Shown piece by piece: positions 16,345 through 59,301 of a DNA stretch of 64,000 bases. Source of the stretch: Fidelibacterota bacterium (GTDB taxonomy: Bacteria; Fidelibacterota; UBA2242); contig JBNGDF010000005.1 in NCBI GenBank assembly GCA_049975265.1, positions 18,654 through 82,653 on the forward strand, written 5' to 3'. The notes under the pieces were generated by a model. That model had not been told where the DNA came from and ran no database searches. It saw only the letters and a program-made list of their open reading frames with translations. A program made the position numbers and the translations under genes. Each line of letters begins with the position of its first letter. The first letter of the stretch is position 1.

Positions 16345-16731
16345 TTATTCCAGGTTTCGGGAGGCGATCAGGGGAATTCCCGAACCGGCAATGTTTTCCA
16401 TCAGAATATCTCCCATTTTGACTGGAGTCGCTACTTCTATCCGGTTGATTTCATTCATACAAGGAAATATCAGATGTTTGGGAATTGCTTCCCGGGTGCG
16501 CACCGGTAAACGTTTATAGTGGGAGTTAATAACCTTTACTGTGGAGGTTAGTATTCGGCGGGGGTCGGTCATTTCAGCGATCGCATAACTGATGCCCCGT
16601 TTGCAGGAATTACCCTCTACCCGAAATCCGTTTTCCGATTTTTCATCGCGGTAAACCGTCAGCCTGCAACCAATCGGGCAGGCGGTACAGATAAGCTCTT
16701 TAGATTGCATATGATGTTTTTTCTCCATCAA
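16345..16731 (-). CDS. DUF1667 CxxC protein, small subunit of the glycerol-3-phosphate dehydrogenase triad
   Basis: ICTACPIGC...GNSCKRG...PRRILTSTV...LPVRT. Confidence 0.85.
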   Translation of the reverse strand: MMEKKHHMQSKELICTACPIGCRLTVYRDEKSENGFRVEGNSCKRGISYAIAEMTDPRRILTSTVKVINSHYKRLPVRTREAIPKHLIFPCMNEINRIEVATPVKMGDILMENIAGSGIPLIASRNLE

Positions 16732-17977
16732 TGTGCAGGGAAATTGTTTTCGGTTGAATGGTTTTCATGATATTGGAATTAATCCGTACCCGTTCCATTT
16801 CACCAGGGGCAAGGTGGAGTCGTTTGACCTCTTTGATTATTTTTCCATCGGCTTGAATCCGGATTCTGGCATTGCGATACACCCTGGTGACCCGCAGCAT
16901 GATGTCCAGAATTCCGTTCAGATTATCAAGGCGGATATACTGAGGGATGACGTAGCTGACGCCCTCTTCCGGTACGACAGGGATAGAGGGGATGTTTTCA
17001 TTGATTTCTTCAAAAATATAATGTGCGGCGCCGGCACCGGCTTTCCGGGCTTCTTCAGTGACATAATCAGCCAAGTCGTGCACATGGGTGACATTTCCGC
17101 AGGCAAAGAATCCTTCGACGCTGGTTTCCATACTCTCGTTGACCAGCGGACCACCGGTTCTCGGATCAAGTTTGATATTAGCCTGGAGGGATAATTCATT
17201 TTCCGGGATCAGTCCCACGGAAAGCAAAAGAGTATCGCATTGGTACTCTTTTTCGCTGCCCGGGATCGGTTTTAGGTTCTGATCCACCTTGGAAATAGTG
17301 ACGCCTGTGACACGGTCTTTACCCCTGATATTGGTGACAGTATGGTTCAGTAGCAAGGGAATGTCGTAATCGTGGAGACACTGAACGATATTGCGGGTCA
17401 AGCCGCTGGAATAGGGCATCAGCTCCGCAACCGCCATAACTTTGGCGCCCTCCAGTGTAAGGCGCCGTGCCATAATTAAACCTATATCACCGGAACCGAG
17501 AATCACAATCCGCCGACCCACCATGTAACCTTCGATATTGATAAATCGTTGAGCAGTACCGGCAGTAAGGACACCCGCCGGTCGGGTTCCGGGAATCCGA
17601 ATGGCGCCCCGGGTCCGCTCACGGCAACCCATGGCTAAAATGATAGCATTGGCAGAGATGTGGATCAAGCCATCCTGTTTATTGATGGCGGTGATGGTTT
17701 TGATTTCTGAAATGTCCATTACCATCGTATCGGTTTTATATTCAATGTCCATTTCGAGAAGTTCATTGATAAACCGCTGGGCATATTCTGGTCCGGTCAG
17801 TTCTTCTTTAAAAATATGTAAGCCGAAGCCGTTATGGATACACTGCTGCAAAATGCCGCCCAGTTCAAGGTCTCTTTCGAGAACTAAAATATTTTGGACA
17901 CCCTTTTTCCGGGCTTCGATGGCAGCTGCCAAACCGGCGGGACCGCCTCCGATGACGACCAACTCGTAATTCAGCAT
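16700..17977 (-). CDS. NAD(P)/FAD-dependent pyridine nucleotide-disulphide oxidoreductase (partner subunit)
   Basis: IGGGPAGLAAA, GGILQQCIHNGFG, MGCRERTRG, GSGDIGLIMARR, CGNVTHVHDL. Confidence 0.88.
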   Translation of the reverse strand: MLNYELVVIGGGPAGLAAAIEARKKGVQNILVLERDLELGGILQQCIHNGFGLHIFKEELTGPEYAQRFINELLEMDIEYKTDTMVMDISEIKTITAINKQDGLIHISANAIILAMGCRERTRGAIRIPGTRPAGVLTAGTAQRFINIEGYMVGRRIVILGSGDIGLIMARRLTLEGAKVMAVAELMPYSSGLTRNIVQCLHDYDIPLLLNHTVTNIRGKDRVTGVTISKVDQNLKPIPGSEKEYQCDTLLLSVGLIPENELSLQANIKLDPRTGGPLVNESMETSVEGFFACGNVTHVHDLADYVTEEARKAGAGAAHYIFEEINENIPSIPVVPEEGVSYVIPQYIRLDNLNGILDIMLRVTRVYRNARIRIQADGKIIKEVKRLHLAPGEMERVRINSNIMKTIQPKTISLHIDGEKTSYAI

Positions 17978-19464: not shown

Positions 19465-19490
19465 GCCGCCGAGTCCTTCATGTTGTTAAA

Positions 19491-19551
19491 GAATAAATAT
19501 ACATTAATATTAATTCATTGATAATTTCAACTATCTGTCGCCAAAAGTCAA
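19491..19551 (-). promoter_or_regulatory. Promoter and 26-bp operator of the dehydrogenase triad
   Basis: Minus strand TTGACT (19551-19546), then 30 nt after TTGAC: GAATTAATATTAATGTATATTTATTC (19516-19491). Confidence 0.75.
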
Positions 19552-19665: not shown

Positions 19666-20616
19666 TTAAGTTAGATGAAGCAGCTCGTCAGCCCCCTGAT
19701 CATCAATAACCAGAGAGTTGATGATTCCTGCTCTCGCCGCAGCGGCAACGACTTGAGCCCGATCCCGTCCGCCGGTTACGGCAACCACTTCCGGAATCCT
19801 TTTTAACTGTTCCAAGCTGATGCCGATAATCCGGTTTGTATAAGTGGTTTCACATTCATTGCCATCTTGGTCCAGAAAATGACCACAGATTTCACCCACC
19901 ATGCCCCGGGATTTAAGGTTATTTAATTTGTGTTTTTCAGAAAATTCATTTGTGTAGAAGACCGAATTTACCGGATTACCAATTCCTACGAAAGCCAGGT
20001 TGGCATGATCCATCTGGTTTAGGACATATTTAATCTGCTCGTGTTCTACAAAAATTTGGTAGCTGCGGTGGTCGGGAGTGATTGCGGGGGCTTGCAGACG
20101 ATAATATTGTCCGCCCCAGCGTTTCGCCAGGCGCCGGGTAAGTTCGATAGCATCATTTTCCTGAATCTGGGTAGAAATATCACCGATGGCTTGAATAAAG
20201 ATATTGCTGTAAGTCGCTTGGGTCGGTTTCATCTCCTCCGTCACAGCATTCAGATAACGTCCCGCGGCGACACAGACAACTGAACCGGATTTGATTAGTT
20301 TGCTGAGAACAGGAGCCGCAAAATGCCCCATCGTGTAGCGATACTGTTCGCTGGTCTGACCGGGGATTGTTTTGATGACGACGCAGTGATGAAAATGGAA
20401 TTCTTCCATCAATTTCTTTTCAAGCACCTGATCACGGGGCGAAAAAGGCTTAACCTGGATTTGGACTATTCCCTTTTTACGGGCTTCCTGGAGCAGACGG
20501 GACACATTAGCCTGGGATAGTCCGGCTAGTTTAGCTACTTTAGCCTGCCCCAGACCTTCGATGTAGTAAAGCGAGGCAACAAGCAGTAAAATTTCATCTT
20601 TTGCTTTTGGTTTAAT
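19666..20616 (-). CDS. SorC/DeoR-family (LsrR/CggR/EryD-like) sugar-phosphate-binding repressor, copy A; probable ATT start
   Basis: The frame extends upstream of the track ORF to include the HTH (VASLYYIEGLGQAKVAKLAGLSQANVSRLLQEARKKGIVQI). Sugar-binding domain has AFVGIG, VGEICGHF, LVIDD. GGGAG lies 6 nt before ATT at 20616. Confidence 0.85.
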   Translation of the reverse strand: MKPKAKDEILLLVASLYYIEGLGQAKVAKLAGLSQANVSRLLQEARKKGIVQIQVKPFSPRDQVLEKKLMEEFHFHHCVVIKTIPGQTSEQYRYTMGHFAAPVLSKLIKSGSVVCVAAGRYLNAVTEEMKPTQATYSNIFIQAIGDISTQIQENDAIELTRRLAKRWGGQYYRLQAPAITPDHRSYQIFVEHEQIKYVLNQMDHANLAFVGIGNPVNSVFYTNEFSEKHKLNNLKSRGMVGEICGHFLDQDGNECETTYTNRIIGISLEQLKRIPEVVAVTGGRDRAQVVAAAARAGIINSLVIDDQGADELLHLT

Positions 20617-20852: not shown

Positions 20853-20913
20853 TTGACATTCCCTGAAAAATGCTTAAAATTAACTTGGCATTTTTATTAA
20901 TGGATATTTATTC
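20853..20913 (+). promoter_or_regulatory. Promoter and 26-bp operator of uptake module A
   Basis: TTGACA (20853)-N16-TAAAAT; GCATTTTTATTAATGGATATTTATTC at 20888-20913, 30 nt after TTGAC. Confidence 0.72.
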
Positions 20914-21033
20914 AATTTAATTATAAAGCATGGTTTTTTTTTAAACATAGGTCGAAACAGGCGGTTAAGAAACAGAAAAATGCTCAGCCGCGCCCAGACT
21001 GGGATTAGGGCAAGCCTGTGTGGAGTGATAGTT

Positions 21034-23751
21034 ATGAATAAATTTGGTGTGGTTGTAATAGTTGGACTGGTCTTATTGATTTGTATTAGTGCTTTGGCTG
21101 CACGACCGGAAAAATCATGGGGAAGATTGTTGATAAAAACACCGGTGATCCGATTGTCGGCGCTAATATCTATATTGAAGGTACCAGTATGGGGACGGCA
21201 TCGGATATCAATGGCGATTACTTTATTATCAACATTCCACCCGGAACCTACACACTGATCTGTTCTTATGTTGGATATGAACGCATCTCCGTAGTAAATA
21301 TTGAGGTCAACGTTGACCGGACTACAATTCAAAATTTTTCTATCGCTCCCCAAGCAATTGAGGGTGAGGAAGTAACGGTTATTGGGACCCGCAAGATTAT
21401 TGAAATGGACCGCACAAATACAGCGGCTTATGTAACATCAGAAGAAATTCAGACCATGCCGGTGCAGGAGCTGGGCGACCTTATTCAGCTGCAAACGGGT
21501 GTGGTGAAGGATGCCGGTGGTACTTTTCATATTCGTGGTGGTCGCGGTGGTGAAATCGCCTATCTGATTGACGGAGTTCCGGTGACGGATCAATATAACG
21601 GCGGAAGTTCCATTGCGATGGAAAACAGCTGGGTTCAGGAGCTGCAGGTCATCAGCGGTACGTTTAACGCCGAGTTACGGTCAGGCTCAATCGGGTGTCG
21701 TCAATATGATTACCAAGGAGGGTGCGAAAAAATTTGGCGGAAATGCCTCGCTCTCAATTGGCGATTATCTTTCAAGCCATTCAGATATTTTTATGAATAT
21801 CGGGGAGATAAATATAAATGAGAAGGACCTCAATCTGAACTTCAGAGGACCGATCTCCCTTATTCGGAATTTGTCTTTTTACACATCCCTGCGCTATTAT
21901 CAGACCGATGGCTGGTTATACGGACAGCGTCGGGTGCTTATCGATGATACCGTGCCGATCCAGCATTATGTCTATCAGGCTCAACGAAATCCCACTCAGG
22001 AGGAGTCACTTTATGGGTATAACATTCCGGACTCGCTGATGAATGGAGACGGCGCCTATATTCCCATGAATGGCAGAGAAAAAATTTCCGGTTACGGGAA
22101 GCTTTCGTACATGCTTACGCCGAAAATTAAGATCAACTATTCGCTATTTTACAATAAGACGGAATCCAGGTCCTACAGTGATTCCCGGCGCTACTCTCCT
22201 GACGGTGTACGTCCGTCTCATGACCGCAATTATAATCACATTCTCAGTCTGAATCACATCCTCTCAAATAAGACCTTTTATAATCTCAACCTATCCCATT
22301 ATGCCAAAAACACCTGGTCTTACCTTTTTGAAAATCCTCTGGATCCGCGTTACCAAGGCATTGCCTTTAGTGACCAGGGATTCATCTTTGGCGGCACTCA
22401 GAACGACCGGTATGATATTTTACGCTCGGCGACATCAGTTAAATTTGATCTGACCAGTCAGATCAACAAGTTCAATCAGGTTAAAATGGGGCTCGAGTAT
22501 AAGCAACACAAACTTGATTACAACTCTTCCAAAACGGTAGCATACGGTGTCAACTACCAGCCGCCCGATTCTCTGGCGGTGCCTGCGAGAAATACGGCAA
22601 ATAATAATCATTATCTGGTAAAGCCCTTAGAAGCATCAATATATATTCAGGACAAAATTGAATTCAGAGAGGTGATCATCAATGTCGGTTTACGTTACGA
22701 TTACTGGGACCCGGTAGCTCAGATCCCCGTGGATTTACGCGCCAGAACAAATATCTATGATGGTATTCGACTGGATTCGGAACTCAGGAAAGCCAAAAAA
22801 CAGATGCAACTGAGTCCCCGATTGTGTTTAGCATATCCTATTTCCGACCGGGGAGTATTTCACGTTTCCTACGGTCACTTTTTCCAGCTGCCGCGTTTCA
22901 ATGCAATTTACAATAATTACGAATATGAGATTGAACTGGGCGGGCTGCGTACAACAATGGGCAACGTGAATTTGAAACCGGAACAGACAGTAGCTTACGA
23001 GTTGGGACTTCAACAGCAACTTGCGGCGGACTACAGTATTGACATTACCGTTTATTATAAGGACATCCGTAATTTACTGAGTCAGGAAATCATCAGTACC
23101 TATGATGACAAGGTCTATGCCCGCTATATTAATCGTGATTACGGCAATGTAAAGGGTATCATCTTTTCGGTGAACAAAGCCTATTCGAATTATTTTTCCG
23201 GTGGGATTGATTACACCTATCAGGTGGCGATGGGGAATGCGTCTGATCCGAATGCTGTCTTTACAAGATATCAGACCGATCCACCGGCGGAGGACGAAAA
23301 GCAGGTGGTCCCTCTGGACTGGGATCAGCGGCATACCTTGAATGCGTCGGCGATTGTTGGGAATCCGTCCAACTGGACCTTTGCGGTAATCGGGCGGTTT
23401 GCCACAGGAATGCCTTACACGCCGACCAACCCCGGTAGTCAGTTGACGACCCAGTTTGAAAACAGTGCCCGCAGACCGGCGACGTATAACATTGACCTGA
23501 ATATCTATAAATCGGTGAAATTGCAGCGCTATAAGCTGAATCTCTTTTGCAAGATATTCAATTTGACCGACCGTTTAAATGAGATCAGAATCTATTCCAG
23601 TACCGGCAATGCCCGTCATCCCTACAGGACCATTCCCAATATGGAGGTGCTGCAAAACAATCCGAATTTCACGGTGGATGAGGTGGATTTGAATCCTACC
23701 TACTATTCCAGTCCCCGACGGGTTTTATTCGGTATAAGTGTCGATTTCTAA
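21034..23751 (+). pseudogene. TonB-dependent receptor, copy A, with two frameshifts
   Basis: The signal peptide from ATG 21034 is out of frame with (G)TTGKIMGKIVD (1-nt loss at ~21100). There is an extra T at ~21675 (paralog reads NAEYGQAQ). Plug FHIRGGRGGEIAYLIDG, barrel and terminal F are present; colinear with 47590-50301. Confidence 0.82.
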
Positions 23752-23766: not shown

Positions 23767-26700
23767 ATGTGCAAATCAATAATAATACGATGCCTTGTTC
23801 CTGTTACCCTTCTGTTTCTGACCAAGCAGGGGTTGTTCGCCGGAGCTGATGAGCGTACCACCGGGGTTCATGATGGTAACCTTGTAATTACCCGCTATTC
23901 GAATTATGGCAACCTGGGGCACCGCGATTCCAGTCCGCGGATGGAATGGCCGAAGGGGACCGGTTTTGTCTACGGGTTTGAATTTATTATGATGGCGGGT
24001 GCTGAAGTGCTGGACGTTAACGGCGATACAGTCCATATCGTATCGGAATCCTATTCACATCCAACCAGCGGGGATATTTCGGCAGACGGAACGCACTGGT
24101 ACAGCTGGCAACCGTTGCCGGGTTATTACAATATGGGACCCGAAAACAAGCTGTTATATCCGGCGATGAGTCATAAACCAGAGACCTGGCCGGCAAGCTG
24201 GCCTCACGACTACCCCGGCGAACCCGGAACCCGTGACGGTTTGTGGAACGGTGAGTTTGGTGCTTATACGCGCGCTGATCAGGAAAGTTACTATGTCATG
24301 GACGATCGTGACAATGACGAGTACGAATATTATCCCTTTATCGGAAGTTCTGTTGATTCATCGGGCTATCCCTACGGGAGGCGTGGTCTTGGATTTGAGG
24401 TGAAAATGCGCGGCTATCAGTGGGCGGCAGTAGAGGCGGAAGACATTCTGATTGTGTGTTACGATATTGCCAATGTCAGTCATAAAAACCTCGAGACAGT
24501 TGTATTCGGTATGTACGTGGATGCCATGGTGGGTGGTACCAATGACAATCCCGATCATGCAACATTTGACGATTTGGATGATATTACCTATTGCTGGGAT
24601 CATGATGGTGTGGACAATCGGGGTCGCCCGGGGCTCGGTTTTTTCGGATTTGCTTTTTTGGAAAGTCCCGGTGATCCGCTAAATGGAGTAGATGATGATC
24701 AGGATGGGTTAATCGATGAACGTCAGGATAATCCTCGCGGCAACTATATTTTTGGTTCAATCGGCAATTTTGGAGAGCCCTGTTGGCACTGGGAAGGCGA
24801 TGAAGATGGGGATTGGCGCCCTTATTTGGATGAGAACGGAAATGGACAGTGGGACCACGGTGAATTCATCGGTGATGATGTCGGTTCGGATGGGATCGGA
24901 CCATATGACCAGGACTATCCGGGACCAGATCCTGATGGAACCGAAGCCAACGGAATGCCCGATGACGGCGAACCGAATTATAATAAGACCGACAACGATG
25001 AATCGGATCAGATCGGCTTGACCAGTTCAGTATTGTGTGAAGCCCAGAGTATGGCACCCGACGAGCGCACCTGGAACCATATGAAGCCTGGCCTGTTTGC
25101 CTGGGTTCAACCTTCTAATCTCGCGTTTGTTTACGGCTCGGGCTATTTTAAGGTTATGCAAGCAGAAACCCGCAAATTTGCCATTGCCTGTCTGTTTGGA
25201 ATTGATGAAGATGATATATACCGTAATAAAAGAACTATGCAGCGGATTTACGATGCCGATTATAGCTTTACTAAACCGCCGCTGAAGCCGCGTTTGACGG
25301 CTATAGCCGGTGATGGTAAAGTGATTCTCAGTTGGGATAAACGCGCTGAATTGTCCATTGATCCAATCTATAAAGAGGATTTTGAAGGATACTTAGTCTA
25401 TCGCTCTACAGATCCCTCATTTAATGATATTAAGACGGTCACCGATGCCTACGGTGCGCCGATTTACTGGAAACCGATTGCCCAGTACGATCTGGTTGAC
25501 GGTCTGAAGGGTCCGCATCCAATCGCAATTGAAGGGACCGGTGCGCAATTTTACATGGGTAAGGACACCGGTCTGAAATACTACTACGTCGATGAAGATG
25601 TCCAAAACGGGCGTACCTACTACTATGCAGTCTGTTCGTATGACAAGGGATATGACACGGACTTTTATGAAAAGGGGTTCTCCCGCTATGATCTCCTGGC
25701 TCCGGTAGCGCCTTCGGAGTGTTCAAAAATTATTCAGACCGACCTCGTGGGCAATGTCACCAGTGTTGACCGTAACTGTGCCGTCGTCGTGCCCAATGCC
25801 CCCAGCGCCGGGTATGTGCCCGGTCAGGTGGAGGAAATTGAGCATATCGGCATTGCTACCGGCGAGTATGCCGTCAATGTTATCGTGCCCGATAGCGTTA
25901 AAGATGGTCATACTTATGAAATCACTTTTCTGGATGATTCGACGGACTGGCGCAATACAAAGAGTGTTAAAGTTGAAAATGTAACGGCGGGAAAGATTTT
26001 ATACCAGAATGATTATAATGAATTCGAGATCAGTAACGAACTTTTTGAGGGGCTCCAGTTCGAATTTGACAACGATTCAACCTATATCAAAGAGTATGGC
26101 TGGCGGGTGGGTAATTGCAATCTGCCCGTAGAAGTGGACACGGCGTGGGGTGTCAAAATTATCCGGGTTCCGGAAGATCTGGAAATAAGGGTACTTGGTC
26201 CCAATGCCGACACCACCTACAATCCCCTTGCATGGGAGCGGTATCCGGTCAATTTTCAGGTGTGGAGTACGACCCGCAATGAACAGATGGATTTCATGTT
26301 CAGTGAACCGATTAATAAAGACAGTATGCTGAACGCCGGTGATAAGGTCTATCCGGTGATTAATGCCAAAGGATTTAATTACAACGATATATGGGAAATT
26401 TACTTTCGCCACGACACCACCCAAAAGGATGTGATTTTACCGCAGCCGGGTGACATTTTTGAAATTAAGGTCTATAAACCCTTTAACTCCGATGATACGC
26501 TCCGTTTTACAACAGCAGGTTCCTTCGTCAGCAAAACAGAAGCGAAGAGCAGTCTGGACGATGTATATGTCGTTCCCGATCCCTATGTGGTGACAGCCAG
26601 CTGGGAAAAACCACTGTTTTATGCCAGCGGTCGGGGTGAACGCCGGGTCGATTTTGTCAATCTGCCGCAGAAGTGTACGATTCGGATTTTTACCATGAGT

Positions 26701-26871
26701 GGAAAGCGGGTGCGGACCCTGCACCACTCCGCTGATTTAACGGATGATGGAACGGAATCCTGGGATTTACTGACCGAAGACGGTCTGACGGTAGCCTTTG
26801 GAGTGTATATTTTTCATGTGGAGGCACCGGGGATTGGCTCCAAAATTGGAAAATTTGCCATTATCAAATAA
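23767..26871 (+). CDS. Large secreted TBDR-associated protein, copy A (Ca-binding DxDxDG motifs, FN3-like region, sorting-type C-terminal domain)
   Basis: Signal peptide; DDDQDGLIDE, DENGNGQWD, DPDGTEANGMPD; GDGKVILSWD...FEGYLVYRS...NGRTYYYAV; C-terminus YVVPDPY...CTIRIFTMSGKRVRTL...WDLL...GVYIFHV...GKFAIIK. Confidence 0.8.
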   Translation: MCKSIIIRCLVPVTLLFLTKQGLFAGADERTTGVHDGNLVITRYSNYGNLGHRDSSPRMEWPKGTGFVYGFEFIMMAGAEVLDVNGDTVHIVSESYSHPTSGDISADGTHWYSWQPLPGYYNMGPENKLLYPAMSHKPETWPASWPHDYPGEPGTRDGLWNGEFGAYTRADQESYYVMDDRDNDEYEYYPFIGSSVDSSGYPYGRRGLGFEVKMRGYQWAAVEAEDILIVCYDIANVSHKNLETVVFGMYVDAMVGGTNDNPDHATFDDLDDITYCWDHDGVDNRGRPGLGFFGFAFLESPGDPLNGVDDDQDGLIDERQDNPRGNYIFGSIGNFGEPCWHWEGDEDGDWRPYLDENGNGQWDHGEFIGDDVGSDGIGPYDQDYPGPDPDGTEANGMPDDGEPNYNKTDNDESDQIGLTSSVLCEAQSMAPDERTWNHMKPGLFAWVQPSNLAFVYGSGYFKVMQAETRKFAIACLFGIDEDDIYRNKRTMQRIYDADYSFTKPPLKPRLTAIAGDGKVILSWDKRAELSIDPIYKEDFEGYLVYRSTDPSFNDIKTVTDAYGAPIYWKPIAQYDLVDGLKGPHPIAIEGTGAQFYMGKDTGLKYYYVDEDVQNGRTYYYAVCSYDKGYDTDFYEKGFSRYDLLAPVAPSECSKIIQTDLVGNVTSVDRNCAVVVPNAPSAGYVPGQVEEIEHIGIATGEYAVNVIVPDSVKDGHTYEITFLDDSTDWRNTKSVKVENVTAGKILYQNDYNEFEISNELFEGLQFEFDNDSTYIKEYGWRVGNCNLPVEVDTAWGVKIIRVPEDLEIRVLGPNADTTYNPLAWERYPVNFQVWSTTRNEQMDFMFSEPINKDSMLNAGDKVYPVINAKGFNYNDIWEIYFRHDTTQKDVILPQPGDIFEIKVYKPFNSDDTLRFTTAGSFVSKTEAKSSLDDVYVVPDPYVVTASWEKPLFYASGRGERRVDFVNLPQKCTIRIFTMSGKRVRTLHHSADLTDDGTESWDLLTEDGLTVAFGVYIFHVEAPGIGSKIGKFAIIK

Positions 26872-26899: not shown

Positions 26900-27967
26900 A
26901 TGCCAGTTATTAAAAGTATTCGGAAAATCGTAATTCTCTTTGCCATACTGGGGTTTTCAACAGTTCTGATGGCGCAGTTTACGGAAGATGAATATATTGA
27001 AAGTGTCTATAAAGAAGATGTCATGAAGCGGGGTACTTCGGCGGCACCCTTTCTTGAAATCGGTGTCGGCGCCAAAGCGCAGGCGATGGGTGGCGCTTTT
27101 ACGGCGATTGCGAATGATGCCAGCGCCCTGTTCTGGAATCCGGCTGGCATCACCCAGATTCAGACGATATCCGCTTCGGTAATTTATACAGAATGGCTGG
27201 CGAATACGCGGCATGAGTACTTTGGCGCCGTCATACCGTTGGGAGGGCGTTTCGCCTGGGGTCTGAATGCCACAATCCTTGATTATGTGGATGAACAGCC
27301 GGTGCGGACCATTGACCAACCGGAAGGTACCGGCGAGTACTGGACGGCTTCGGATATGGCGTTGGCGACTTCCTTTGCCGCCCGGATTACCGACCGCTTT
27401 TCCTTTGGCATGAGTGCCAAATATATCCGCATGCAGATCTGGAACGAGACCGCCAGCGCCGGAGCACTCGATTTTGGCGTCTTGTATAAATCGCAGTTGA
27501 AAGGACTGACCCTGGGAACGAGCATTTCCAATTTTGGAACCACACTGAAGCTTGACGGTCGTGATTTGGTGCGGGCGTATGATGCCGATAAGCAGCATTA
27601 TTCGAATGACCAGCTGAATGTGCTTTACAAAATGGAGAGCTATCCGTTGCCGCTGCTGTTCCGTTTCGGAATTGCCTACAGCATTACGCGATCTAAAAAC
27701 CAGTTGACCCTGACCTGCGATCTGAATCATCCGTCCAATGATATTGAGAGCATCAACGTGGGTTTGGAGTACTGTCTGCTGAATATTTTTTATTTGCGGA
27801 CCGGTTACCAATCGCTGTTTGATGATGACAGTGAAAACGGCTTGACGTACGGTTTCGGGCTGGAAACGCCGCTGAAAAATTCCTTCGGTCTGGCGTTTAG
27901 TTACTCTTTTGCCGAGTGGGGATTGCTGGAAAACGTTCAGCGTTTTTCGGTTGATTTGAAAATGTAA
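26900..27967 (+). CDS. PorV/PorQ-family outer-membrane barrel, copy A
   Basis: GTSAAPFLEIGVGAKAQAMGGAFTAIANDASALFWNPAG signature; YPLPLLFRFG. Confidence 0.85.
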   Translation: MPVIKSIRKIVILFAILGFSTVLMAQFTEDEYIESVYKEDVMKRGTSAAPFLEIGVGAKAQAMGGAFTAIANDASALFWNPAGITQIQTISASVIYTEWLANTRHEYFGAVIPLGGRFAWGLNATILDYVDEQPVRTIDQPEGTGEYWTASDMALATSFAARITDRFSFGMSAKYIRMQIWNETASAGALDFGVLYKSQLKGLTLGTSISNFGTTLKLDGRDLVRAYDADKQHYSNDQLNVLYKMESYPLPLLFRFGIAYSITRSKNQLTLTCDLNHPSNDIESINVGLEYCLLNIFYLRTGYQSLFDDDSENGLTYGFGLETPLKNSFGLAFSYSFAEWGLLENVQRFSVDLKM

Positions 27968-41074: not shown

Positions 41075-41140
41075 TAAGTTTGAATTTGCCTGAATGCTCC
41101 AATTTTTTAAAATTTCAAATGTCAATCAAAGGATGCCCTG

Positions 41141-47392: not shown

Positions 47393-47454
47393 TTGACTTT
47401 TAGGATAAAAGATTGCATACTACACATAGAATTAATATTTATGAATAATTATTC
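47393..47454 (+). promoter_or_regulatory. Promoter and 26-bp operator of uptake module B
   Basis: TTGACT (47393)-N17-CATACT; GAATTAATATTTATGAATAATTATTC at 47429-47454. Confidence 0.78.
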
Positions 47455-47589
47455 TTATGGTATTAATAATTCCCCGCAAACTCGAGATAAGTAAAAATTC
47501 TTTTATTGTGTTCGCAAAGGTGACTTCCTGAAACCTACCCAGATATCTTGACATGAATAAAAAATATTTTCAATCAGTTGGAGTGGTGA

Positions 47590-50355: not shown

Positions 50356-53300
50356 ATGACGGGAAAGAAAAAATCAAACAAATATGGGCGGTGTCTCGCA
50401 ATACTGCTGATATCACTACTCTAGACCTGGACCGGTATATTTGCCGGTAATGAACATCGCCGGTCGGGAATCCACAACGGAAATCTGGTCAACACCCGCT
50501 TTTCCAATTTTGGGAATTTGGGTGACCGGTATAAATCGCCGCAAATGGAGTGGCCGAAAGGGACCGGATATACTTACGGTTTTGAGTTTATCATGGCTGC
50601 CGGAGGCGAAGTGGTGGATTCTGCGGGTTTCACGGTTCAGATTGTTTCCGAGAGCTATACACATCCGACCTCGCATGACATTTCACCCGATGGTACGCAT
50701 CTCTGGAACTGGCAGCCTCTGCCAGGCTATTTCGAAGAGGATATCACAATTAATAAAGATGAATTTCCGGCAATGAGTCATAAATCGGAAACCTGGCCTA
50801 AATCCTGGCCGCATGATTATCCCGGTAATCCCGGTACTCGTGCTGGGCGTTGGAATGGTGAATTTGGTGCCTATGTTCGGGCGGATCAAGAGAGCTATTA
50901 TGTGATTGATGATCGGGATAATGACGAATACGGCTATTTTCCATTCATTGGCAGTGCAATTGATTCCGGTGGCTGGTATACAGGCGGGCGCCGGGGACTT
51001 GGTCTCAAAGTAAAAGTGCGTGGATATCAATGGGCGGCTGTAGCAGCTGAGGATATTCTGATTGTCCGCTACGACTTTGAAAACTACAGTCATAAGGATT
51101 TACCGAAAGTTGTTTTTGGTATGTATGCCGATGTGATGGTGGGCGGCTCCGGTGATTCCGGTGATGATTTAGCCTATTTTGACCTGGTTGATGATATTAC
51201 CTACTGTTGGGATGCCGATGGTTTAGATATTAAAGGTCGCACGGGGATCGGTTACTTCGGATACGCCTTTTTAGAGAGTCCCGGTGATCCGCTTAATGGT
51301 CTCGATGATGACCAGGATGGTCTGATTGATGAAGAACAGGATAATGATCGAGGCAGTTATATATAAGGTCCGGTTGGAAAATTTGCTGAGGGCAATGTGT
51401 GGCATTGGTCTGGTGACGAGGATGGTGATTGGCGCAGCTATGAAGACGCCAACGGCAACGGACAATGGGATTATGGGGAGTTTATTGGTGACGATGTCGG
51501 CTCGGACGGAATTGGTCCCTACGACTACGATTATCCAGGTCCGGATACCGACGGAACAGAAGCCAATGGAATGCCGGATCAGGGAGAACCGAATTTCGGT
51601 AAAACTGATAATAATGAATCCGATCAGATCGGCTTGACCAGTTTTGTACTTAACAACGCCACCAACATGAAGGATGACCTCAGGGCATGGCGGTTCTTCC
51701 AACTGGGCTTGATTTCGACTCCTCCGGTTACAAACCTGGCGTTTTTCTATGGTTCGGGATATTTTTCCTTACCTAAAGAATGGAACCAGAAAATTTGCCA
51801 TTGCAAATCTGTTCGGAAATGACTTTGAGGATATTTTAAAGAATAAGCGCACGATGCAGAAAATTTATGATGCCGATTATAACTTTACAAAGCCGCCGCT
51901 GAAACCCAATGTCCGCGCTGTAGCACGGGACAGGAAAGTCATTTTGACCTGGGATAAGATGGCGGAACTTTCCATCGATCCGATTTACGGTTCTGACTTC
52001 GAGGGCTATCTGGTCTACCGATCCACCGATCCCTCTTTTAACGACGTCAAAACAATTACCGATGCTTACGGTAATGAGCTCTACTGGGAACCGATTGCCC
52101 AGTTTGACAAAGCCGACGGGCTGAGCGGCTTGCATCCGATTACGATTGAGGGTACGGGAGCTCATTTTCACATGGGAGATGACAGCGGCTTACAGTACCA
52201 TTATATTGACAGCACAGTGGAAAACGGGCGGCGCTATTTTTACGCTGTCTGTTCCTATGATAAAGGGTATGACGAGGATTTTTACGAGCGGGGTTTGTCG
52301 TCGGTGGCATCGCTTGCACCGGTTTACCCCACCGAATGCAGTAAAATCATTCAGATTGATGCGTTGGGGGAAGTGGAGTATGTGGATATCAATTGCGCCG
52401 TAGTGACTCCCAATGCCGGCAGCGCCGGTTATATTGAAGGGGGCATGGTGGCTGACTACGAGCACGTCGGTCTGGCGACCGGCTATCTGGATGTGGTGTT
52501 TGCTATCCCCGATGACGTTCAGGATGGACATCGTTATGAAGTAACCTTTTCTGATACCACCGGCGGTCGCTTCACCAACGGTATCTGCATCCGGGATTTA
52601 ACGGATAATGAGATTATCTATAAGAATGACTGTTACGATGAATTTGATATCAGAAGGGAAGTCCGAGAAGGTATGCGTTTTGATTTTTACAACGATTCTT
52701 CCTACGTGACCGAGCACGGCTGGCTGGTGGGGAATTGTAATCTGCCCTATCGTGTTGGTCTAACCAGCGATAACGCCAAGCGCCGCACGCTGCCGGAAGA
52801 TATTGAGATTCGGATTCTGGGAGATAATGCCGACACTTCGTTCTACAATCCACTGGACACTGAATCCAACCGCCCGGTAAATTTTCAGGTCTGGAGCACC
52901 ACCTACAACCGCAAGCTGGATTTTGCTTTTTATGAATATGTTCATAAGGACAACCGTCTTAATGGCGGCGATCAGATCAGTATTTGTCATGAAATTCAGA
53001 ATTTCGGCACCGCTTCGAAGGTTGCCTGGATTTTCAAACTGGATACCGTCGAAAATGCGATTGACCCGGAATATGGTGATATATTTTACTTTAAGGTGAC
53101 CAAGCCATTCAATGCCGATGACACCATCCGTTTTATAACGCACGGATCAAAGATAGACAAAAAGCAGGCGAAAGCGGACCTGGATGATATTTACGTAGTT
53201 CCCGATCCCTATGTGGTCAGTGCCCCCTGGGAAAAGCCGCTATTTTTTACCAGTGGCAGGGGCGAACGGCGCATTGATTTTGTCAATTTGCCGTCGGAAT

Positions 53301-53494
53301 GTATGATTCGTATCTATACGGTTTCAGGAAAACTGGTCAAGACTCTCAGGCATTCGGCGCAGATGTCCATGGGTGCCGAATCATGGGACTTGGTGTCGGA
53401 AGACGGGCTGACGGTGGCATACGGCATATATGTCTATCATGTGGAGGCTCCCGGAATCGGTTCGAAAGTGGGCAAATTTGCTTTAATAAAGTAA
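50356..53494 (+). pseudogene. Large secreted TBDR-associated protein, copy B, with two in-frame stops and a frameshift
   Basis: From ATG 50356: TAG at 50422, TAA at 51364 and one extra A at ~51776. Removing the A gives GYFSLPKNGTRKF, the same length as GYFKVMQAETRKF in copy A. Colinear with 23767-26871. Confidence 0.82.
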
Positions 53495-53520: not shown

Positions 53521-54594
53521 ATGAATAAAAATCAACAAAAGTTGCTGCTGAAATTATTATTGATTGCTCTGGTTTTGATGGGTGGCTCGAGCCTGTGGGC
53601 GCAGCTGGAGGAGGAATACACCGAACTCATTTATACGGGGGAGGTCAACAAAAAGGGGTCATCCTCAGCCCAGTTTCTGGAAATCGGCATCGGCGCCAGG
53701 GCACTGTCCATGGGTAGTGCGTTTACGGCGGTGGCTAATGATGTGACCGCGCTATACTGGAATCCGGCGGGTATTACCCAGATTGACAATATCAGCGTCA
53801 CCGGTACTCATACTGAGTGGTTTGCCGACATGTCGCTGGATCATGCTGCCGGGATTGTACCGGTGGGCAACGGACAGATGGTGGGATTTGCGCTGTCGGT
53901 TTTCAATGCCATTGATAAGCAGACGGTCCGCACCGTGACGTATCCGGAAGGAACCGGGGAATACTACAGCGCCTCGGATTTGGCGCTGGCTTTGACATAT
54001 GGTCTGAGAATCACCGATCGTTTCTCCTGTGGTTTGACGGGTAAATATGTACGGCAACAGATTTGGCACATGTCGTCAGCGGGGTATGCCGTGGATATCG
54101 GTTTACTCTATAAAACACAATTAAAAGGTCTGAATCTGGGCGCCAGTATTTCCAATTTCGGGACGGATATGCGCCTGGCTGGTCGTGATGTGCGGCGGGC
54201 TCATGATGAAGACCCGATTCACTATTCAAACGATAAAATCAATGCCATGCTGGAAACCGATGCATTTCCAATGCCGCTGCTGTTTCGGTTCGGGCTGGCG
54301 TACTCTTTTTCACCTTTTAAATATAATGATTTGACGCTGGCGGTGGATCTGTTGCACCCCAGCAATAACGTGGAATACCTGAATGTGGGCTGCGAATATG
54401 CTCTGGCAAAACTGTTTTTCCTGCGCATTGGATATGAGGCGCTGTTTGATGAAGAGGCGGAAAGCGGTTTGAGCCTCGGAGCCGGCATCAACTATAAGCT
54501 GTTTCAGCAGACGGCATTGCGATTTGATTATGCGATTGTTGACTGGGGACGTCTGGCGTATGCCCAGCATTTTACCGTGGGATTATCATTTTGA
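53521..54594 (+). CDS. PorV/PorQ-family outer-membrane barrel, copy B
   Basis: GSSSAQFLEIGIGARALSMGSAFTAVANDVTALYWNPAG; terminal F; start taken at ATG 53521 after GAGG. Confidence 0.85.
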   Translation: MNKNQQKLLLKLLLIALVLMGGSSLWAQLEEEYTELIYTGEVNKKGSSSAQFLEIGIGARALSMGSAFTAVANDVTALYWNPAGITQIDNISVTGTHTEWFADMSLDHAAGIVPVGNGQMVGFALSVFNAIDKQTVRTVTYPEGTGEYYSASDLALALTYGLRITDRFSCGLTGKYVRQQIWHMSSAGYAVDIGLLYKTQLKGLNLGASISNFGTDMRLAGRDVRRAHDEDPIHYSNDKINAMLETDAFPMPLLFRFGLAYSFSPFKYNDLTLAVDLLHPSNNVEYLNVGCEYALAKLFFLRIGYEALFDEEAESGLSLGAGINYKLFQQTALRFDYAIVDWGRLAYAQHFTVGLSF

Positions 54595-54628: not shown

Positions 54629-57208
54629 ATGAAAAGAAGAAATGTTACCATCGCGAACCTCTGCGTGACGTTTCTGGTGCTGGCTTTTTTTTCCGGAACA
54701 GTCACGGCCCAATGGGGCAAGGCGTTGCATTATAAATGGTGGGAGCATGACCGGCTGCTGGTTCTCCAGTCGGTGGACTATTGGCCGGAGCATGTGTATC
54801 AGGGAACGGTAGAGTGTTTCTTCAAACTGGATTCGACGTTGCGTTCGGATAATCATGGCAATACCTATACCTACATCATTTCGAAAAATCAGGGCGGTGC
54901 CGCCAAGGGCGATTTCGGGATTGCCTGGCAGACAGGGGCTGGCGATCTACACTCCTGGATTCAGGATGTAAGTAAAACCGCCTCGGTGCATACATACGAA
55001 ATTAAGGTCTGGCAACCCCGCTGGTACCATGTCGCAGTTACGTGGGATGTCAACGATTCAATGCGGATTTGGGTAGACGGTGTCCAGATGGCGGATCGAA
55101 CACCGTCAGGGCTGATTAATGATACCTATCCCCCGCTGGATGTGGAAAGTGGCAACATGCCGATTGTGATTGGAAACCAGACGACGGAACAGATGTCCAC
55201 CACCTGGGACGGCTTTCGCGGTACGATTGACGAATTCCGGATCTCCAATGTGGTTCGCTATACCGAGGATTTTGAAGTTCCCACCGAGCCTTTCATAGCG
55301 GATGCCAATACCATGGCGCTCTGGCATTTTGATGAAGGTGAGGGTTACGTCGCCCACGATGCAGCCTTCGGTCTTTTCGACGGGAAATTGGGGAATGAGA
55401 GCAATAGTTATGTTGATGCACCCCAATGGGTTGATATTGTTTATTCAGAAAAAGTGATCATTAATGAGGTTTTGCTGGATGAGCGCAATAATGATGTCAA
55501 CGGCGACGGTGTCAGTGACCTGCGGGATGAATTTGTCGAGCTGACCAACATTGCCGATAAGGCGGTGGATCTCTCCGGCTGGCAGCTGGGTGATGACGAG
55601 GCGTTGAATTTCACCTTCCCGGATGGATACATTCTTCCGCCACACAAATTTGTGACGGTGGTCGGTGGCGGAGATGTCAGCAGCCTGCCCGGATATGACG
55701 CCGATCCGCTGAAAACGGCGGTCTTTGCCGCCGATGGTACCATTGGTGACGGTCTGGATGCAGCGGGAGAATATATTATTCTGAAGTCACGTCTCGGCTA
55801 TTCTGACACCTATCTGGCGGTGGGCAGTGCCGCCTCGGCGGGTGCACCAAATTCTGCGGTGGTTGAAGGAATGGACTGGGAGTTTGCTAATGCCACGGCT
55901 GTCGCCGCCGGTCAGGGAGCTTCGATAACCCGCAGCCAGGATGCCAATACTGAGGTGGAGGATCCTTTTGCGGTGCACAGCGAAGTTGGCACCGGGAACT
56001 TTTCGGCGGGCACGACGATCGACGGTGCCGATTATTTGTCCTATGTGGTAACGATGAGCATGGACCCGGAGGGTGTGGGAACCCTTGAGATTGATACGGT
56101 CATGGCGCGTTACGAATACAACCAGGTTGTCACATTTAATACTCTGCCGATTTATGGCGAAGGTCACGCCTTCGGCTATTGGACCAATAGTGATGAAGGA
56201 TTTAAAAGCAAATTAAATCCTCTCACCATGTCCATCAATAAACCGCAGCACGTGGTGGCTCACTTTGTACCGCGAATTCAGATCACCCCCCGAATTGTCA
56301 TCAATGAGGTCAATTTTGATGTCTATAAAGATGCCAATGGCGATGGAATTATAGATTCCAACCAGGACGAGTTTATAGAGATTGCCAATATATCCAACGA
56401 CGATGTGGATATGACCGGATGGCAGGTTGGGGATGACGAAGAATTATCCTTTACTTTCCCCGATGGCTATATCATGGCACCGGGACAGATTGTTGTTATT
56501 TTTTCCGGTGGCAATATCACCGGAGTGCCCGGTTTTAATGTCAACCCGCTTAAAACCAGAGTATTTGTATCCGATGTTATTGATCGTCTTGGAAATGGTT
56601 TGAATAATACCGATGAAGCCATATTGCTGGTTTCCGCCGACGGGACGGAGGATATGTACATCCAGAACCGGGATCGCCTGTATAAGGGTGATCCCCATAT
56701 TAAATCGGCTGAAGGTATTGATTTCGAGATTCGCTTTGACGTCCGGGATTCCACCTGGAACAACAACTCGATTACGCTGTTTCCGGATGGGGACCTGAGC
56801 GAAGATGATCCCTATGTGCAGCATAAAACGGTGGCTCTAGATGACTCCTGTTTTTCACCCGGTCAGACGGTTAATTTCGAAAACTCGATTGTTGTCAGCG
56901 CGATTGATGGAACCGAATCCGGTTTACCGAAATCCTTTGCTCTGCATTCGAATTATCCCAATCCGTTTAATCCGGAAACCACCCTGCGATTTGATGTACC
57001 GGGTCGTACGAAAGTAACGGTAACGGTTTACGACATACTGGGTAAAAAGGTCGCCGTGCTGACTGACAAAGAATATGCTGCCGGGTACTATCAGATTCGC
57101 TGGGACGGACGGAACCGGAGCGGTCAGGCGGTTCCCGCCGGTGTCTATTTTTATCGTCTTCAGGCGGATAATTTCATGCAGACCAATAAGATGATTCTGC
57201 TGAAGTAG
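54629..57208 (+). CDS. Secreted LamG-like + 2 lamin-tail-domain protein with CTD, copy B
   Basis: Colinear with 28027-30624; WYHVAVTWD, IDEFRIS, LWHFDEG, two INEV...DEF.E units, SNYPNPFNP...KMILLK; GGAGG RBS. Confidence 0.8.
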   Translation: MKRRNVTIANLCVTFLVLAFFSGTVTAQWGKALHYKWWEHDRLLVLQSVDYWPEHVYQGTVECFFKLDSTLRSDNHGNTYTYIISKNQGGAAKGDFGIAWQTGAGDLHSWIQDVSKTASVHTYEIKVWQPRWYHVAVTWDVNDSMRIWVDGVQMADRTPSGLINDTYPPLDVESGNMPIVIGNQTTEQMSTTWDGFRGTIDEFRISNVVRYTEDFEVPTEPFIADANTMALWHFDEGEGYVAHDAAFGLFDGKLGNESNSYVDAPQWVDIVYSEKVIINEVLLDERNNDVNGDGVSDLRDEFVELTNIADKAVDLSGWQLGDDEALNFTFPDGYILPPHKFVTVVGGGDVSSLPGYDADPLKTAVFAADGTIGDGLDAAGEYIILKSRLGYSDTYLAVGSAASAGAPNSAVVEGMDWEFANATAVAAGQGASITRSQDANTEVEDPFAVHSEVGTGNFSAGTTIDGADYLSYVVTMSMDPEGVGTLEIDTVMARYEYNQVVTFNTLPIYGEGHAFGYWTNSDEGFKSKLNPLTMSINKPQHVVAHFVPRIQITPRIVINEVNFDVYKDANGDGIIDSNQDEFIEIANISNDDVDMTGWQVGDDEELSFTFPDGYIMAPGQIVVIFSGGNITGVPGFNVNPLKTRVFVSDVIDRLGNGLNNTDEAILLVSADGTEDMYIQNRDRLYKGDPHIKSAEGIDFEIRFDVRDSTWNNNSITLFPDGDLSEDDPYVQHKTVALDDSCFSPGQTVNFENSIVVSAIDGTESGLPKSFALHSNYPNPFNPETTLRFDVPGRTKVTVTVYDILGKKVAVLTDKEYAAGYYQIRWDGRNRSGQAVPAGVYFYRLQADNFMQTNKMILLK

Positions 57209-57267: not shown

Positions 57268-57330
57268 TGATGTATCAATAGTCGCATTATTTATAGAATC
57301 TGCCGTGAAAAAAGAGTATTTTACAACGTT

Positions 57331-59301
57331 ATGAAAAAGCTTGTTTTAGTAATATTGTTTATTTTTCTCACAGACGCCGATGGCAAGGTGCTGTTTCGCT
57401 ACAATTCCGACCTTACAGCCGATTCTCCGTTATAATCGTCGTTTGTGGGTAATCATATTACGGTTCAGGAATATCTGCCTGCCAGCGAAATACCCGCCAG
57501 AGGAGCCGGGGGCTGGGGCTTTCGGACGGTCCACACAACTCTGTTTAATCACGATTCCGCCTATATTCGGTGTCCCGATACCCTGCGCACATCTTTCTAC
57601 AACGATCACGATTTTTCGGCGGAGGTCTGGTTCAAGCCCGATTGCCGGAATGGGAACCTGATGACACTGCTGGATGATTACGGTGATGTGATTTTTACTC
57701 TGACCCTGAAAGACTGTATATTACATTTCCAGCGCATTCTGCAATACAAGCTCTTCGAAATACAGTCATCCGACACCTGTACCCAAAACGAGTGGAATTA
57801 TGTGCAGTGGATCAGCGGAACCGTCACTGACACGATTCGGCAGCGTCTCTATCTGAATCGCCAGCTGGTTGCCGAACAGCAGTCAGCGATTGTTCACTAC
57901 CCCATCGGCTTTGAGACCCTGTCGGGACATCTGAAAATCGGTTTCGATGCCGCGCTGGAAAGCAGCTCCTATCGCGGTGAAATATATGCAGCAGAGCTGA
58001 AAACCGAGGAATTCGGATCGGTATACAACAACGCCCATTATCCACTGGATGGCAGCGGCTACTTTGGTCTGCCCTATTACCGTTATTATCGCTCCGGTTC
58101 CGACATTTATCAAAAGCGGATCCGCGCCAGTAAGGTTCCGATCGCAGCGGCTGTTTTCGTGCCTTATTCAAACGATGGCTATATTCCACAGGGATTGACA
58201 AATACTTATGAGGACGATCAATTCACCGGTGACAGCGACATGGTGTACATCTCGCTTTACCATCGTGATATCGATGGAACGACCGGCAATCAACGCTCGA
58301 TTATTGTCGAGTTGGATTCCGGCAAAGACTATCAGGTACGGCGCTGTTTTCGGATGAACGGTGAACTGGCGACGGCGCACATGACCGCCATGGCTTACCG
58401 GGGCGGTAATATTCTGCTGACATGTGGCGGAAAAGGTTTCCGGCTTGAAATCCCGGAATACAGTGGTGCCGGCAGGGAGAAATATCAGACCCTTGGTTAT
58501 GTCTGGTCCCAGAGTATGTATTCAGCCTCCGCCACCTATTTTTCCGATACACTCTGGTGCTGTACCAAATTTGCCGATGAAGCCGGAGAAACGGCTTATC
58601 TGGCGGGTTACCCGATGAATCTGTCGGGAGTTGTTGATTTAGCGGCAAAACCGACATACTATATGCTGCCGATGTATGTTCAGGGCGCCGCCTGGACGAA
58701 ATTTCAGGGACAGGATTACCTCTTCGCCTCCTGCAGCTTCGGTGACAGGGATTCGAAATTATACCGCTACTCCAGGAGTAAGCTTTCCCGCTGGGAACTG
58801 GCGGAACCGGATACGATTTTTTACCTTCCGGCGGGAACGGAAGATGTAACCTTTAACCGAGCCGGCAATTTAATGGTCTCTTCCGAATCGTCGGCGCTCT
58901 ATTATTCCAGCCGGACGTCCAATCCCTGGTCCCAATTCTTTCCCTTCATTTTCGAAATTTCCAGGGAGGTACTATTTGCCGATCGGGTCAATGGAGGTAC
59001 GGGAACCCAATCGCAGGGTCTCAGTATACTGCCGGGGGAGTATGAGTTGGTGGCTTATCCCAATCCGTTTAATAACCGACTGAGTATTCACTACAAGGTT
59101 GGAAATGCTGTCACCAGCCTGCTCAATATTTACGATCTTCGCGGGCGGATTATTGATTCCGTTTCCCATGAAAGTGTCGATTCCAGATCGTATATACATT
59201 ATACCTGGAATCCTGAAAAACTCGCCTCCGGCGTTTATCTTATTCAATTGCTTGTGGATGATATCCCCACCCGTTCACGGAAGGTGGTCCTACTGAAATG
59301 A
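57331..59301 (+). pseudogene. Secreted LamG-like/propeller protein with CTD, copy B; in-frame TAA at 57433
   Basis: ATG 57331 MKKLVLVILFIFLTDADG (signal peptide) is in frame with ORF 57445 across one TAA. YIPQGLTN, VRRCFR, GTEDVTF, SESSA and QFFPFI are shared with 33641-35605. Confidence 0.72.

Follow-up and report, generated by a model that had tools for sequence, protein, structure and literature searches.

Overall organization of the locus

The window, a 64,000-nucleotide stretch on contig C5 of a 2.86 Mb, 95% complete Marinisomatota genome (G000; compared genomes and loci carry G and L numbers), contains two TonB-dependent uptake modules, A and B, flanked by enzymes that probably degrade both enantiomers of glycerol phosphate, sn-glycerol-3-phosphate (G3P) and sn-glycerol-1-phosphate (G1P). 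From left to right, three minus-strand genes (DUF1667, Pyr_redox_2 and DAO+BFD) are followed by the regulator gene sorC-A, module A, an LTD-repeat gene, the AraM operon, sorC-B, module B and phosphoesterase-like genes (Table 1). Module A encodes a TonB-dependent receptor (TBDR), a protein of ~1030 amino acids (aa), a PorV barrel, a LamG/LTD protein, the glycerophosphodiester phosphodiesterase GDPD-A, a SASA esterase, a protein with a type IX secretion system (T9SS) tail and a metallophosphoesterase. The AraM operon, co-directional with module A and equipped with its own promoter, encodes GDPD-B, an AraM-like dehydrogenase, a HAD-IIA phosphatase, a GlpT-like transporter of the major facilitator superfamily (MFS) and an RpiB-fold isomerase. 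On balance, we favor a single regulon that would scavenge glycerophosphodiesters (phospholipid head groups, teichoic acids) and convert both glycerol-phosphate enantiomers to dihydroxyacetone phosphate (DHAP); the doubled uptake module would be an old add-on and not the source of the stereochemical split. Pfam was scanned with 45 window proteins and NCBIfam with 44.

A single operator on both sides of the locus

A TTGAC box followed by a GAATTAATATTWATGAATAWWTATTC-like sequence, which starts 33–36 bp past the first base of the box, is present at 24 sites in 29 upstream regions. A matrix derived from 19 sites of other genomes detects exactly five strong sites in G000 (31.0–38.8 bits), all of them in this locus: before the triad, TBDR-A, the LTD-repeat gene, GDPD-B and TBDR-B. 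At all five, the TTGAC box begins 35–36 bp ahead of the first G of the operator. The next non-overlapping matches score 14.8 (before sorC-A) and 14.0, and three shuffles gave none above 13. The 14.0-bit site (C6:33374), which has an upstream TTGAC and lies ~400 bp from the housekeeping rpiB, is probably a chance match. The non-Marinisomatota AraM loci scanned contain no site above 12 bits.

Two independent SorC regulons should have separate operators on the A side and the B side; instead, one motif occurs on both, with 15 of 26 positions invariant across A-side and B-side sites. The helix-turn-helix (HTH) regions of SorC-A and SorC-B are identical at 35 of 49 positions and their effector domains at 136 of 244 (56%). 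From the position and distribution of the motif, we infer that SorC binds it, and the one shared operator indicates a putative single, jointly controlled scavenging system. Neither sorC gene has an ATG, GTG or TTG close before the HTH (window ~20616 and ~47200); ATT codons are located there, so a non-standard start is possible.

Single-module relatives carry the full enzyme set

Genome G041, from a different family of the phylum, has one close SorC and a single module. Its gene order is GlpD, LTD-repeat protein, GDPD-B, AraM, HAD, MFS, DerI-like isomerase, SorC, TBDR, ~1030-aa protein, PorV, LTD protein and T9SS-tailed protein, followed by two phosphoesterases, a PPIase-like protein, GDPD-A, an uncharacterised gene, a second MFS and a transketolase. 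L130 and L132 match the left part of this order and L128 most of it; G041, L130 and L132 each carry GlpD, GDPD-B, AraM, HAD, MFS, a DerI-like gene and one close SorC. A matrix of 15 sites from the window's genus places operators before GlpD, TBDR and, in L132, GDPD-B. The gene content of G041 indicates that both dehydrogenase types and both GDPD types were already under one regulator with one module. The transketolase is co-directional at the end of the single-module operon (L203:2178-4184; L129:9294-11312). The close AraM clade occurs in 8 of 301 phylum genomes searched.

The cargo set that flanks AraM in these relatives is A-like. PorV (95/97), the ~1030-aa protein (97, FastTree) and the LTD protein (57% versus 41% identity) of the single module fall with A, TBDR falls weakly with B (SH-aLRT 91), and SorC and the last gene are unresolved; TBDR was placed by a quick tree, and FastTree was used for three genes. 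These mixed groupings indicate that the A/B split is about as deep as the split from the single-module lineage. The A/B pair may stem from an old duplication or from a reunion by transfer.

Two diverged copies of one module

As the initial annotation described, the order sorC <- -> TBDR, ~1030-aa protein, PorV, LamG/LTD and, later, a T9SS-tailed protein is present twice (19666–35605 and 46265–59301), and the modules are colinear yet diverged (36–72% protein identity; 66–67% DNA identity in the best segments). By tblastn, A and B are 57% identical in SorC, 62–71% in TBDR, 61–69% in the ~1030-aa protein, 51% in PorV, 45% in LamG/LTD and 36% in the last protein. Eight more TBDR...PorV modules in G000 (on C3, C8 twice, C15, C18, C23, C25 and C47) are only ~22–44% identical (44% for the best TBDR N-terminal segment, up to 42% for PorV), and SorC has just two copies in the genome, which makes A and B a true paralog pair. 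Two close SorC copies occur in four of the seven genomes of the genus (G000–G003) and in G043, and SorC-A adjoins the triad in G001–G003 too. The module pair is real, old and conserved, with counterparts in four other genomes. A recent tandem duplication was ruled out by the DNA identity of only 66% between A and B.

Some details of the initial annotation had to be adjusted. Both copies of its ~1040-aa protein are present, but copy B is split into three by two stops and a frameshift. SorC-A abuts the triad and SorC-B abuts the AraM operon, as proposed, but SorC-B is convergent with that operon. The "propeller" protein of module A has no Pfam support beyond a T9SS tail (PF18962), and an Atlas search yielded no family for it. 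The ~1030-aa protein matches no Pfam or NCBIfam family, and 30 of 30 Atlas matches are hypothetical clusters; the large protein between TBDR and PorV, here and in the eight other modules, appears to be a widespread uncharacterised SusD-position family. The modules resemble the TBDR-X-PorV modules of the FCB group, which are similar to polysaccharide utilization loci, in the TBDR, the large family-less protein, the PorV-family barrel and the T9SS-tailed enzymes; they differ in their phosphoesterase cargo and in the presence of two copies under one operator. The module B operon of G001 (L095:5997-13251) contains an inserted sugar ABC transporter and an L-ribulokinase (over cut-off), which recalls B. 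subtilis araB/araLM/araNPQ, and also holds a URO-D-like gene and a second GDPD-B paralog (49%).

Table 1. Genes and operator sites of the locus (PWM, position weight matrix score in bits).
Feature	Position in window	Strand	Evidence or remark
FngC-like DUF1667 subunit, 128 aa	16345..16731	-	PF07892, E 3.6e-31
FngB-like FAD/NAD oxidoreductase, 425 aa	16700..17977	-	PF07992; QCIH at residue 45
FngA-like FAD G3P dehydrogenase subunit with C-terminal BFD [2Fe-2S], 497 aa	17971..19464	-	PF01266+PF04324
Operator behind TTGAC promoter of fng triad	19489..19518	-	PWM 37.0
SorC/DeoR-family regulator A, start codon uncertain, HTH upstream of listed GTG	19666..20616	-	PF04198; 316-aa alignment to SorC-B
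Operator behind module A promoter	20886..20915	+	PWM 31.0
TBDR-A, two frameshifts	21034..23751	+	PF00593/PF07715
~1030-aa protein A, family-less	23767..26871	+	No Pfam/NCBIfam match over cut-off
PorV/PorQ-family barrel A	26900..27967	+	NF033709, 209.7 bits
LamG + LTD + T9SS-tail protein A	28027..30624	+	Pfam
GDPD-A, canonical motifs HRG, ExD, HD, IELK; lipoprotein-like N-terminus	30811..31605	+	PF03009
SASA-family acetylesterase-like protein	31625..33622	+	PF03629
T9SS-tailed protein A (initially LamG/propeller)	33641..35605	+	PF18962 only; 36% to copy B
Purple-acid-phosphatase-type metallophosphoesterase, broken	35612..37329	+	Pfam; intact at 569 aa in L123
Operator behind LTD-repeat gene promoter	37446..37475	+	PWM 34.0
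LTD-repeat T9SS-tailed protein, in-frame TGA	37610..40912	+	Pfam
Operator behind AraM operon promoter	41047..41076	+	PWM 33.7
GDPD-B, divergent subfamily, LDxK replacing IExK	41141..42025	+	PF03009
AraM-family (G1PDH-like) dehydrogenase, long clade, 457 aa	42042..43415	+	Best sequence and fold match B. subtilis AraM 9h4x
HAD-IIA phosphatase (AraL/NagD-like)	43436..44287	+	TIGR01460 over cut-off
GlpT/UhpC-family organophosphate MFS transporter	44321..45709	+	NCBIfam, no equivalog cut-off met
DerI-like RpiB-fold isomerase	45709..46182	+	NF051858 160.9 vs TIGR01120 131.3
SorC/DeoR-family regulator B, start codon uncertain	46265..47200	-	Pfam
Operator behind module B promoter	47427..47456	+	PWM 38.8
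TBDR-B, intact	47590..50301	+	Pfam
~1030-aa protein B, broken	50356..53494	+	Intact 1033 aa in G001
PorV/PorQ-family barrel B	53524..54594	+	NF033709, 200.6 bits
LamG + LTD + T9SS-tail protein B	54629..57208	+	Pfam
T9SS-tailed LamG protein B, in-frame TAA	57313..59301	+	Pfam
PPIase-like, Zn-PLC/S1-P1-like and TAT-like metallophosphoesterase genes, continuing module B	59298..62860	+	Pfam, first two weak matches; order kept in G001

The FngABC-type triad and the two GDPDs

The triad shows all three sequence features of FngABC: an FAD oxidoreductase with BFD (FngA), the QCIH (Gln-Cys-Ile-His) motif conserved in FngB (PMC13689815), and an adjacent DUF1667 protein (FngC). The best PDB match of the FngA-like subunit is L-alpha-glycerophosphate oxidase (4x9m, E 5e-53), and the named entries among the 120 matches listed are mostly clostridial and 57–62% identical. 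No GlpD homolog was found in G000, and FngABC occupies the place that GlpD has in the single-module relatives; this replacement within the same regulon favors G3P as the probable substrate of the triad. The likeness to FngABC of P. furiosus (PF2005-2007; PMC13689815) comprises the three adjacent genes, the same domains, a nearby GDPD and an anaerobic host. Compared with that system, glpK is not adjacent here (it is on contig C3), the SorC operator is common to the G1P dehydrogenase (G1PDH)-family operon and the TonB modules, and the activity is predicted.

The initial annotation gave each side its own GDPD. One GDPD is indeed located on each side, but the two are only 22% identical, so that they are not products of this duplication, and GDPD-B is off the collinear position. 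GDPD-A contains the complete catalytic motifs (HR, ExD, HD, ExK), while the GDPD-B clade has a fixed Asp in place of Glu in the last motif (D in all 33 covering alignments of 35). The stereochemistry on which the annotation drew is as stated: wall teichoic acid is sn-G3P, and lipoteichoic acid and the phosphatidylglycerol head group are sn-G1P (PMC7086022). GlpQ is strictly sn-G3P-specific (PMC7086022). In light of these facts, the joint occurrence of a second, divergent GDPD, a G1PDH-family enzyme and an importer is consistent with G1P scavenging.

The AraM-family dehydrogenase and its genomic company

The closest solved relatives of the AraM-like protein, by both sequence and fold, are G1PDHs (9h4x, TM-score 0.72/0.83, 24% identity). 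D197, H267 and H287, which we take to be metal ligands, are invariant in 20 of 20 sequences, and an SRPxSGxEH motif aligns with AraM and archaeal G1PDH. The most probable substrate is sn-G1P. B. subtilis AraM/AraL (araABDLMNPQ-abfA; 9h4x) is the closest comparison, with the metal ligands and the SRPASGxEH motif kept and an adjacent HAD-IIA phosphatase. In contrast to B. subtilis AraM, the protein here is ~60 residues longer, GDPD, the GlpT-like MFS, DerI and SorC replace the arabinose genes, and the proposed direction is oxidative. The HAD-IIA protein Rv1692 reportedly prefers sn-G1P, and PDB entry 4i9f is only a mid-ranking match to the phosphatase of the locus. The MFS transporter scores 357.7 with TIGR00712 (cut-off 632.55) and higher with the UhpC model, also below the cut-off. 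A second GlpT-like MFS accompanies a Thermotoga-type inositol cluster (IolG, IolM, IolN and IolO over cut-offs) at G000:C12:53400-61200 (L106).

The AraM survey collapsed 114 loci to 91 at 90% identity, 34 of them with at least 5 kb on both sides. AraM is accompanied by MFS in 54 of the 91 loci (22 of the 34 well-flanked ones), GDPD in 31 (16), HAD in 22 (13), SorC in 22 (12), FAD-dependent G3P dehydrogenase (G3PDH) in 14 (8) and the RpiB-fold DerI-like isomerase in 14 (11). Within the locus DNA covered, geranylgeranylglyceryl phosphate (GGGP) synthase (GGGPS), digeranylgeranylglyceryl phosphate synthase (DGGGPS), geranylgeranyl reductase (GGR) and triosephosphate isomerase (TIM) were never found beside AraM (0 of 91). 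GGGPS occurs in 35 of 41 relatives and close AraM in six, in line with expectation for FCB bacteria (PMC6431249, PMC7852524). The absence of GGGP/DGGGP synthases beside AraM, a linkage that the initial annotation regarded as damaging to its catabolic proposal, favors a probable scavenging role for AraM.

Elsewhere in G000 there are a GGGP synthase over the TIGR01769 cut-off (C11:60509-61270; L102:8510-9271), a DGGGPS-like UbiA (C31, L107:1411-2250) and a UbiA next to a GGR-like gene (C9, L109:1369-3640); together with the AraM-like gene, these unlinked genes are candidate steps of a complete archaeal-type ether lipid pathway. A second AraM (54–57%) at L208:60-17000 (G001:C36), L134 and L135 lies between alpha-galactosidase-like and arabinofuranosidase-like genes, near galactose genes and without the operator, a setting in which galactosyl-glycerol(-phosphate) could be the substrate. 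Four Verrucomicrobiota loci (L022, L024, L027, L036) combine AraM and a DerI-like gene with an inositol-monophosphatase-family gene in place of the HAD phosphatase.

The RpiB-fold isomerase scores higher with NF051858 than with TIGR01120, while the housekeeping RpiB on C6 gives the reverse order; the NF051858 score is below the curated cut-off (160.9 versus 240). D-x, HD.YSAER, SNxAQ and GG[RSH]S replace DH, HN and GGRH in a tight clade found in 14 of 91 loci from two phyla; the His/His/Arg motifs of RpiB, presumably functional there, are thus absent. Of 41 genomes, four have the full operon, and no others carry the DerI-like gene.

Broken surface genes

Breaks were called against intact orthologs of G001 and G002. 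TBDR-A has frameshifts near 21102 and 21675 (versus the G002 ortholog), the metallophosphoesterase a 7-bp deletion near 36655, the LTD-repeat gene a TGA at 37889 (related strains read A>G at 37891), ~1030-aa protein B a TAG at 50422, a TAA at 51364 and a frameshift near 51778, and the last module B gene an in-frame TAA at 57433. Eight breaks thus affect five of 15 surface or periplasmic genes (10,533 aa), and none affects the nine enzyme, inner-membrane and regulator genes. The background is ~5 internal breaks (13 with likely start-call artefacts) in 228 orthologs of 99,561 aa (Poisson P 1e-7 to 1e-4). Three breaks are readable in public contigs of related strains and are absent there, including the 21675 indel (those of ~1030-aa protein B lie outside that coverage). 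Since stops and frameshifts hit surface genes of both A and B, both uptake modules are likely disabled in this strain.

Stop-codon recoding was ruled out, as TGA, TAG and TAA are all present along with indels. Random assembly error as the sole cause was ruled out by the Poisson excess, although an error in this particular assembly may be involved. The T9SS-tailed metallophosphoesterase gene from 62882 onward also appears broken and carries the operon past the window. At 1990-3364 and 3377-4381, the frame of an OprB-like porin is interrupted by an in-frame stop immediately ahead of position 2585; its neighbors are a gene resembling phosphate porins and a patatin gene.

Discussion

The E. coli glp regulon (glpTQ, glpD, glpABC) places a periplasmic GDPD, an organophosphate antiporter and a flavin G3P dehydrogenase under one repressor. 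The locus is probably a variant of such a glp-type scavenging regulon in a sediment bacterium. It shares these three elements and the common regulation; compared with E. coli, it adds a second divergent GDPD, a G1PDH-family enzyme, a HAD phosphatase, a DerI-like isomerase, SorC-type repressors and TonB/PorV/T9SS-tailed surface modules. In the single regulon that we favor, diesters would be gathered and trimmed by surface phosphoesterases together with the TonB module. Glycerol phosphate, freed in the periplasm by GDPD-A and GDPD-B, would then enter the cell through the GlpT-like antiporter. FngABC, by analogy with its family, would oxidise sn-G3P by ferredoxin-assisted bifurcation. The AraM-family enzyme may oxidise sn-G1P once the antiporter concentrates it, a thermodynamically tight step. 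The HAD phosphatase could remove excess as glycerol for GlpK and FngABC, and the DerI-like isomerase could salvage a four-carbon side substrate.

Several observations weigh against this assignment. NAD-linked G1P oxidation has a ΔG0′ of +25 kJ/mol (E0′ −190/−320 mV, PMC13689815), and 37–745 mM G1P is needed at an NADH/NAD of 0.03 and 0.05–1 mM DHAP, ratios that are assumed. G000 looks anaerobic, as no COX1 was found and an RnfB-like protein is present; it also encodes GpsA, GlpK and one TIM. The phosphatase route via glycerol, GlpK and FngABC avoids the uphill step, but glpK has no operator. A four-carbon (C4) substrate drawn off by DerI and transketolase would likewise bypass this step, and these two neighbors are unexplained by pure G1P chemistry. 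The AraM-like protein falls below the curated G1PDH cut-off (NF002022, 171.5 versus 413), and at 18 of the 34 well-flanked AraM loci both G3PDH and DerI are absent from the neighborhood. Many FngABC homologs act on other polyols (PMC13689815). One operator position splits by side (A in 8/8 A-side, T in 7/8 B-side sites) and the -10 box differs too; with two promoters per side from related genomes, this is a hint and not evidence for two regulons.

Bacteria can grow on G1P, and neither GpxB nor UgpB selects by chirality (PMC12718374). Phaeobacter, a marine bacterium that likewise uses G1P and G3P, takes up G1P through these ABC transporters; the available text names no catabolic G1P enzyme, which the window locus may supply. 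G1P recycling is described there as unexplored, which raises the value of the AraM operon, while the non-selective GpxB and UgpB lower the case for stereospecific uptake.

Alternatively, the AraM operon may serve an alditol phosphate of four or more carbons: D-erythritol-4-phosphate set free by GDPD-B would be oxidised by the AraM-like enzyme to D-erythrulose-4-phosphate, which DerI and transketolase would pass to the pentose-phosphate pathway, with the rest of the regulon serving G3P. The DerI-like clade beside AraM, a transketolase that closes the operon in G041 and L129, and ribulokinase-type kinases that flank AraM at several loci all fit, and a dedicated low-pool product would remove the thermodynamic problem. 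sn-G1P is D-glycerol-3-phosphate (PMC7086022) and would have the same C2 configuration, and E. coli RpiB "potentially has DerI activity" (PMC10733421), which could explain DerI loss. Erythritol/tetritol catabolism (EryA-D, LerI, DerI; PMC10733421, PMC3599248) shares a DerI-like isomerase, the FAD polyol-phosphate dehydrogenase family and a sugar-phosphate regulator with the locus. However, neither a LerI-like second TIM nor a Dak1/DerK kinase was found in G000, and entry here is by phosphodiesterase and phosphate-ester antiporter. No DerI is present at 77 of the 91 loci, L015 of a close relative among them, and in a 53-row AraM tree (loci of at least 7 kb, matches of at least 300 aa) DerI-linked and GlpD-linked AraMs are interspersed, which suggests one function. 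Few abundant tetritol-phosphate diesters are known, and we consider this C4 route unlikely.

A more specific combination is doubtful, yet conceivable: GDPD-B would release sn-G1P, the long-clade AraM would oxidise sn-G1P along with a C4 homologue pulled by DerI, and SorC-B and module B, once duplicated, would have turned to G1P-type ligands without losing the common operator.

The initial annotation proposed that duplication produced two stereospecific branches, with module A, SorC-A and GDPD-A for sn-G3P and module B, SorC-B and GDPD-B for sn-G1P. The adjacency kept in G000–G003, the divergence of the SorC effector domains, the operator base and -10 box that split by side, the weak grouping of the single-module TBDRs with B and the second GDPD-B-like gene inside G001 module B are consistent with it. 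Against it, the operator is common to both sides, and the fng operator is nearer to that of TBDR-B (3.8 mismatches) than to that of TBDR-A (4.9). Both dehydrogenases and both types of GDPD are already found under a single SorC in the single-module relatives, whose PorV, ~1030-aa and LTD proteins group with A while flanking AraM. The low identity of the GDPDs and the non-selective G1P/G3P binding proteins (PMC12718374) also argue against two branches, which are improbable. Least probable is an AraM that works reductively, making G1P from DHAP for archaeal-type ether lipids or, jointly with the HAD phosphatase, draining surplus DHAP and NADH into glycerol: reduction is the favored, documented direction (PMC4244643) and G000 holds the lipid genes listed above, but these are unlinked and without operator, most relatives with GGGPS have no AraM, AraM loci contain no lipid genes, and AraM lies here between a periplasmic GDPD and an importer.

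The component families are known; neither their combination nor an account of an AraM-GDPD-GlpT catabolic operon was found in the open-access literature searched. The duplication is of lesser interest, as it doubles a common FCB-type uptake module that is decaying in this strain. The locus names candidates for the steps after G1P uptake, namely a divergent GDPD subfamily, an AraM clade that spans Marinisomatota, Verrucomicrobiota, Planctomycetota and Acidobacteriota, and a defined operator, and it bears on the purpose of bacterial AraM/AraL pairs. If the sn-G1P assignments are true, GDPD-B and AraM would be the missing intracellular route for sediment bacteria that consume G1P derived from archaeal lipids, lipoteichoic acid and phosphatidylglycerol.

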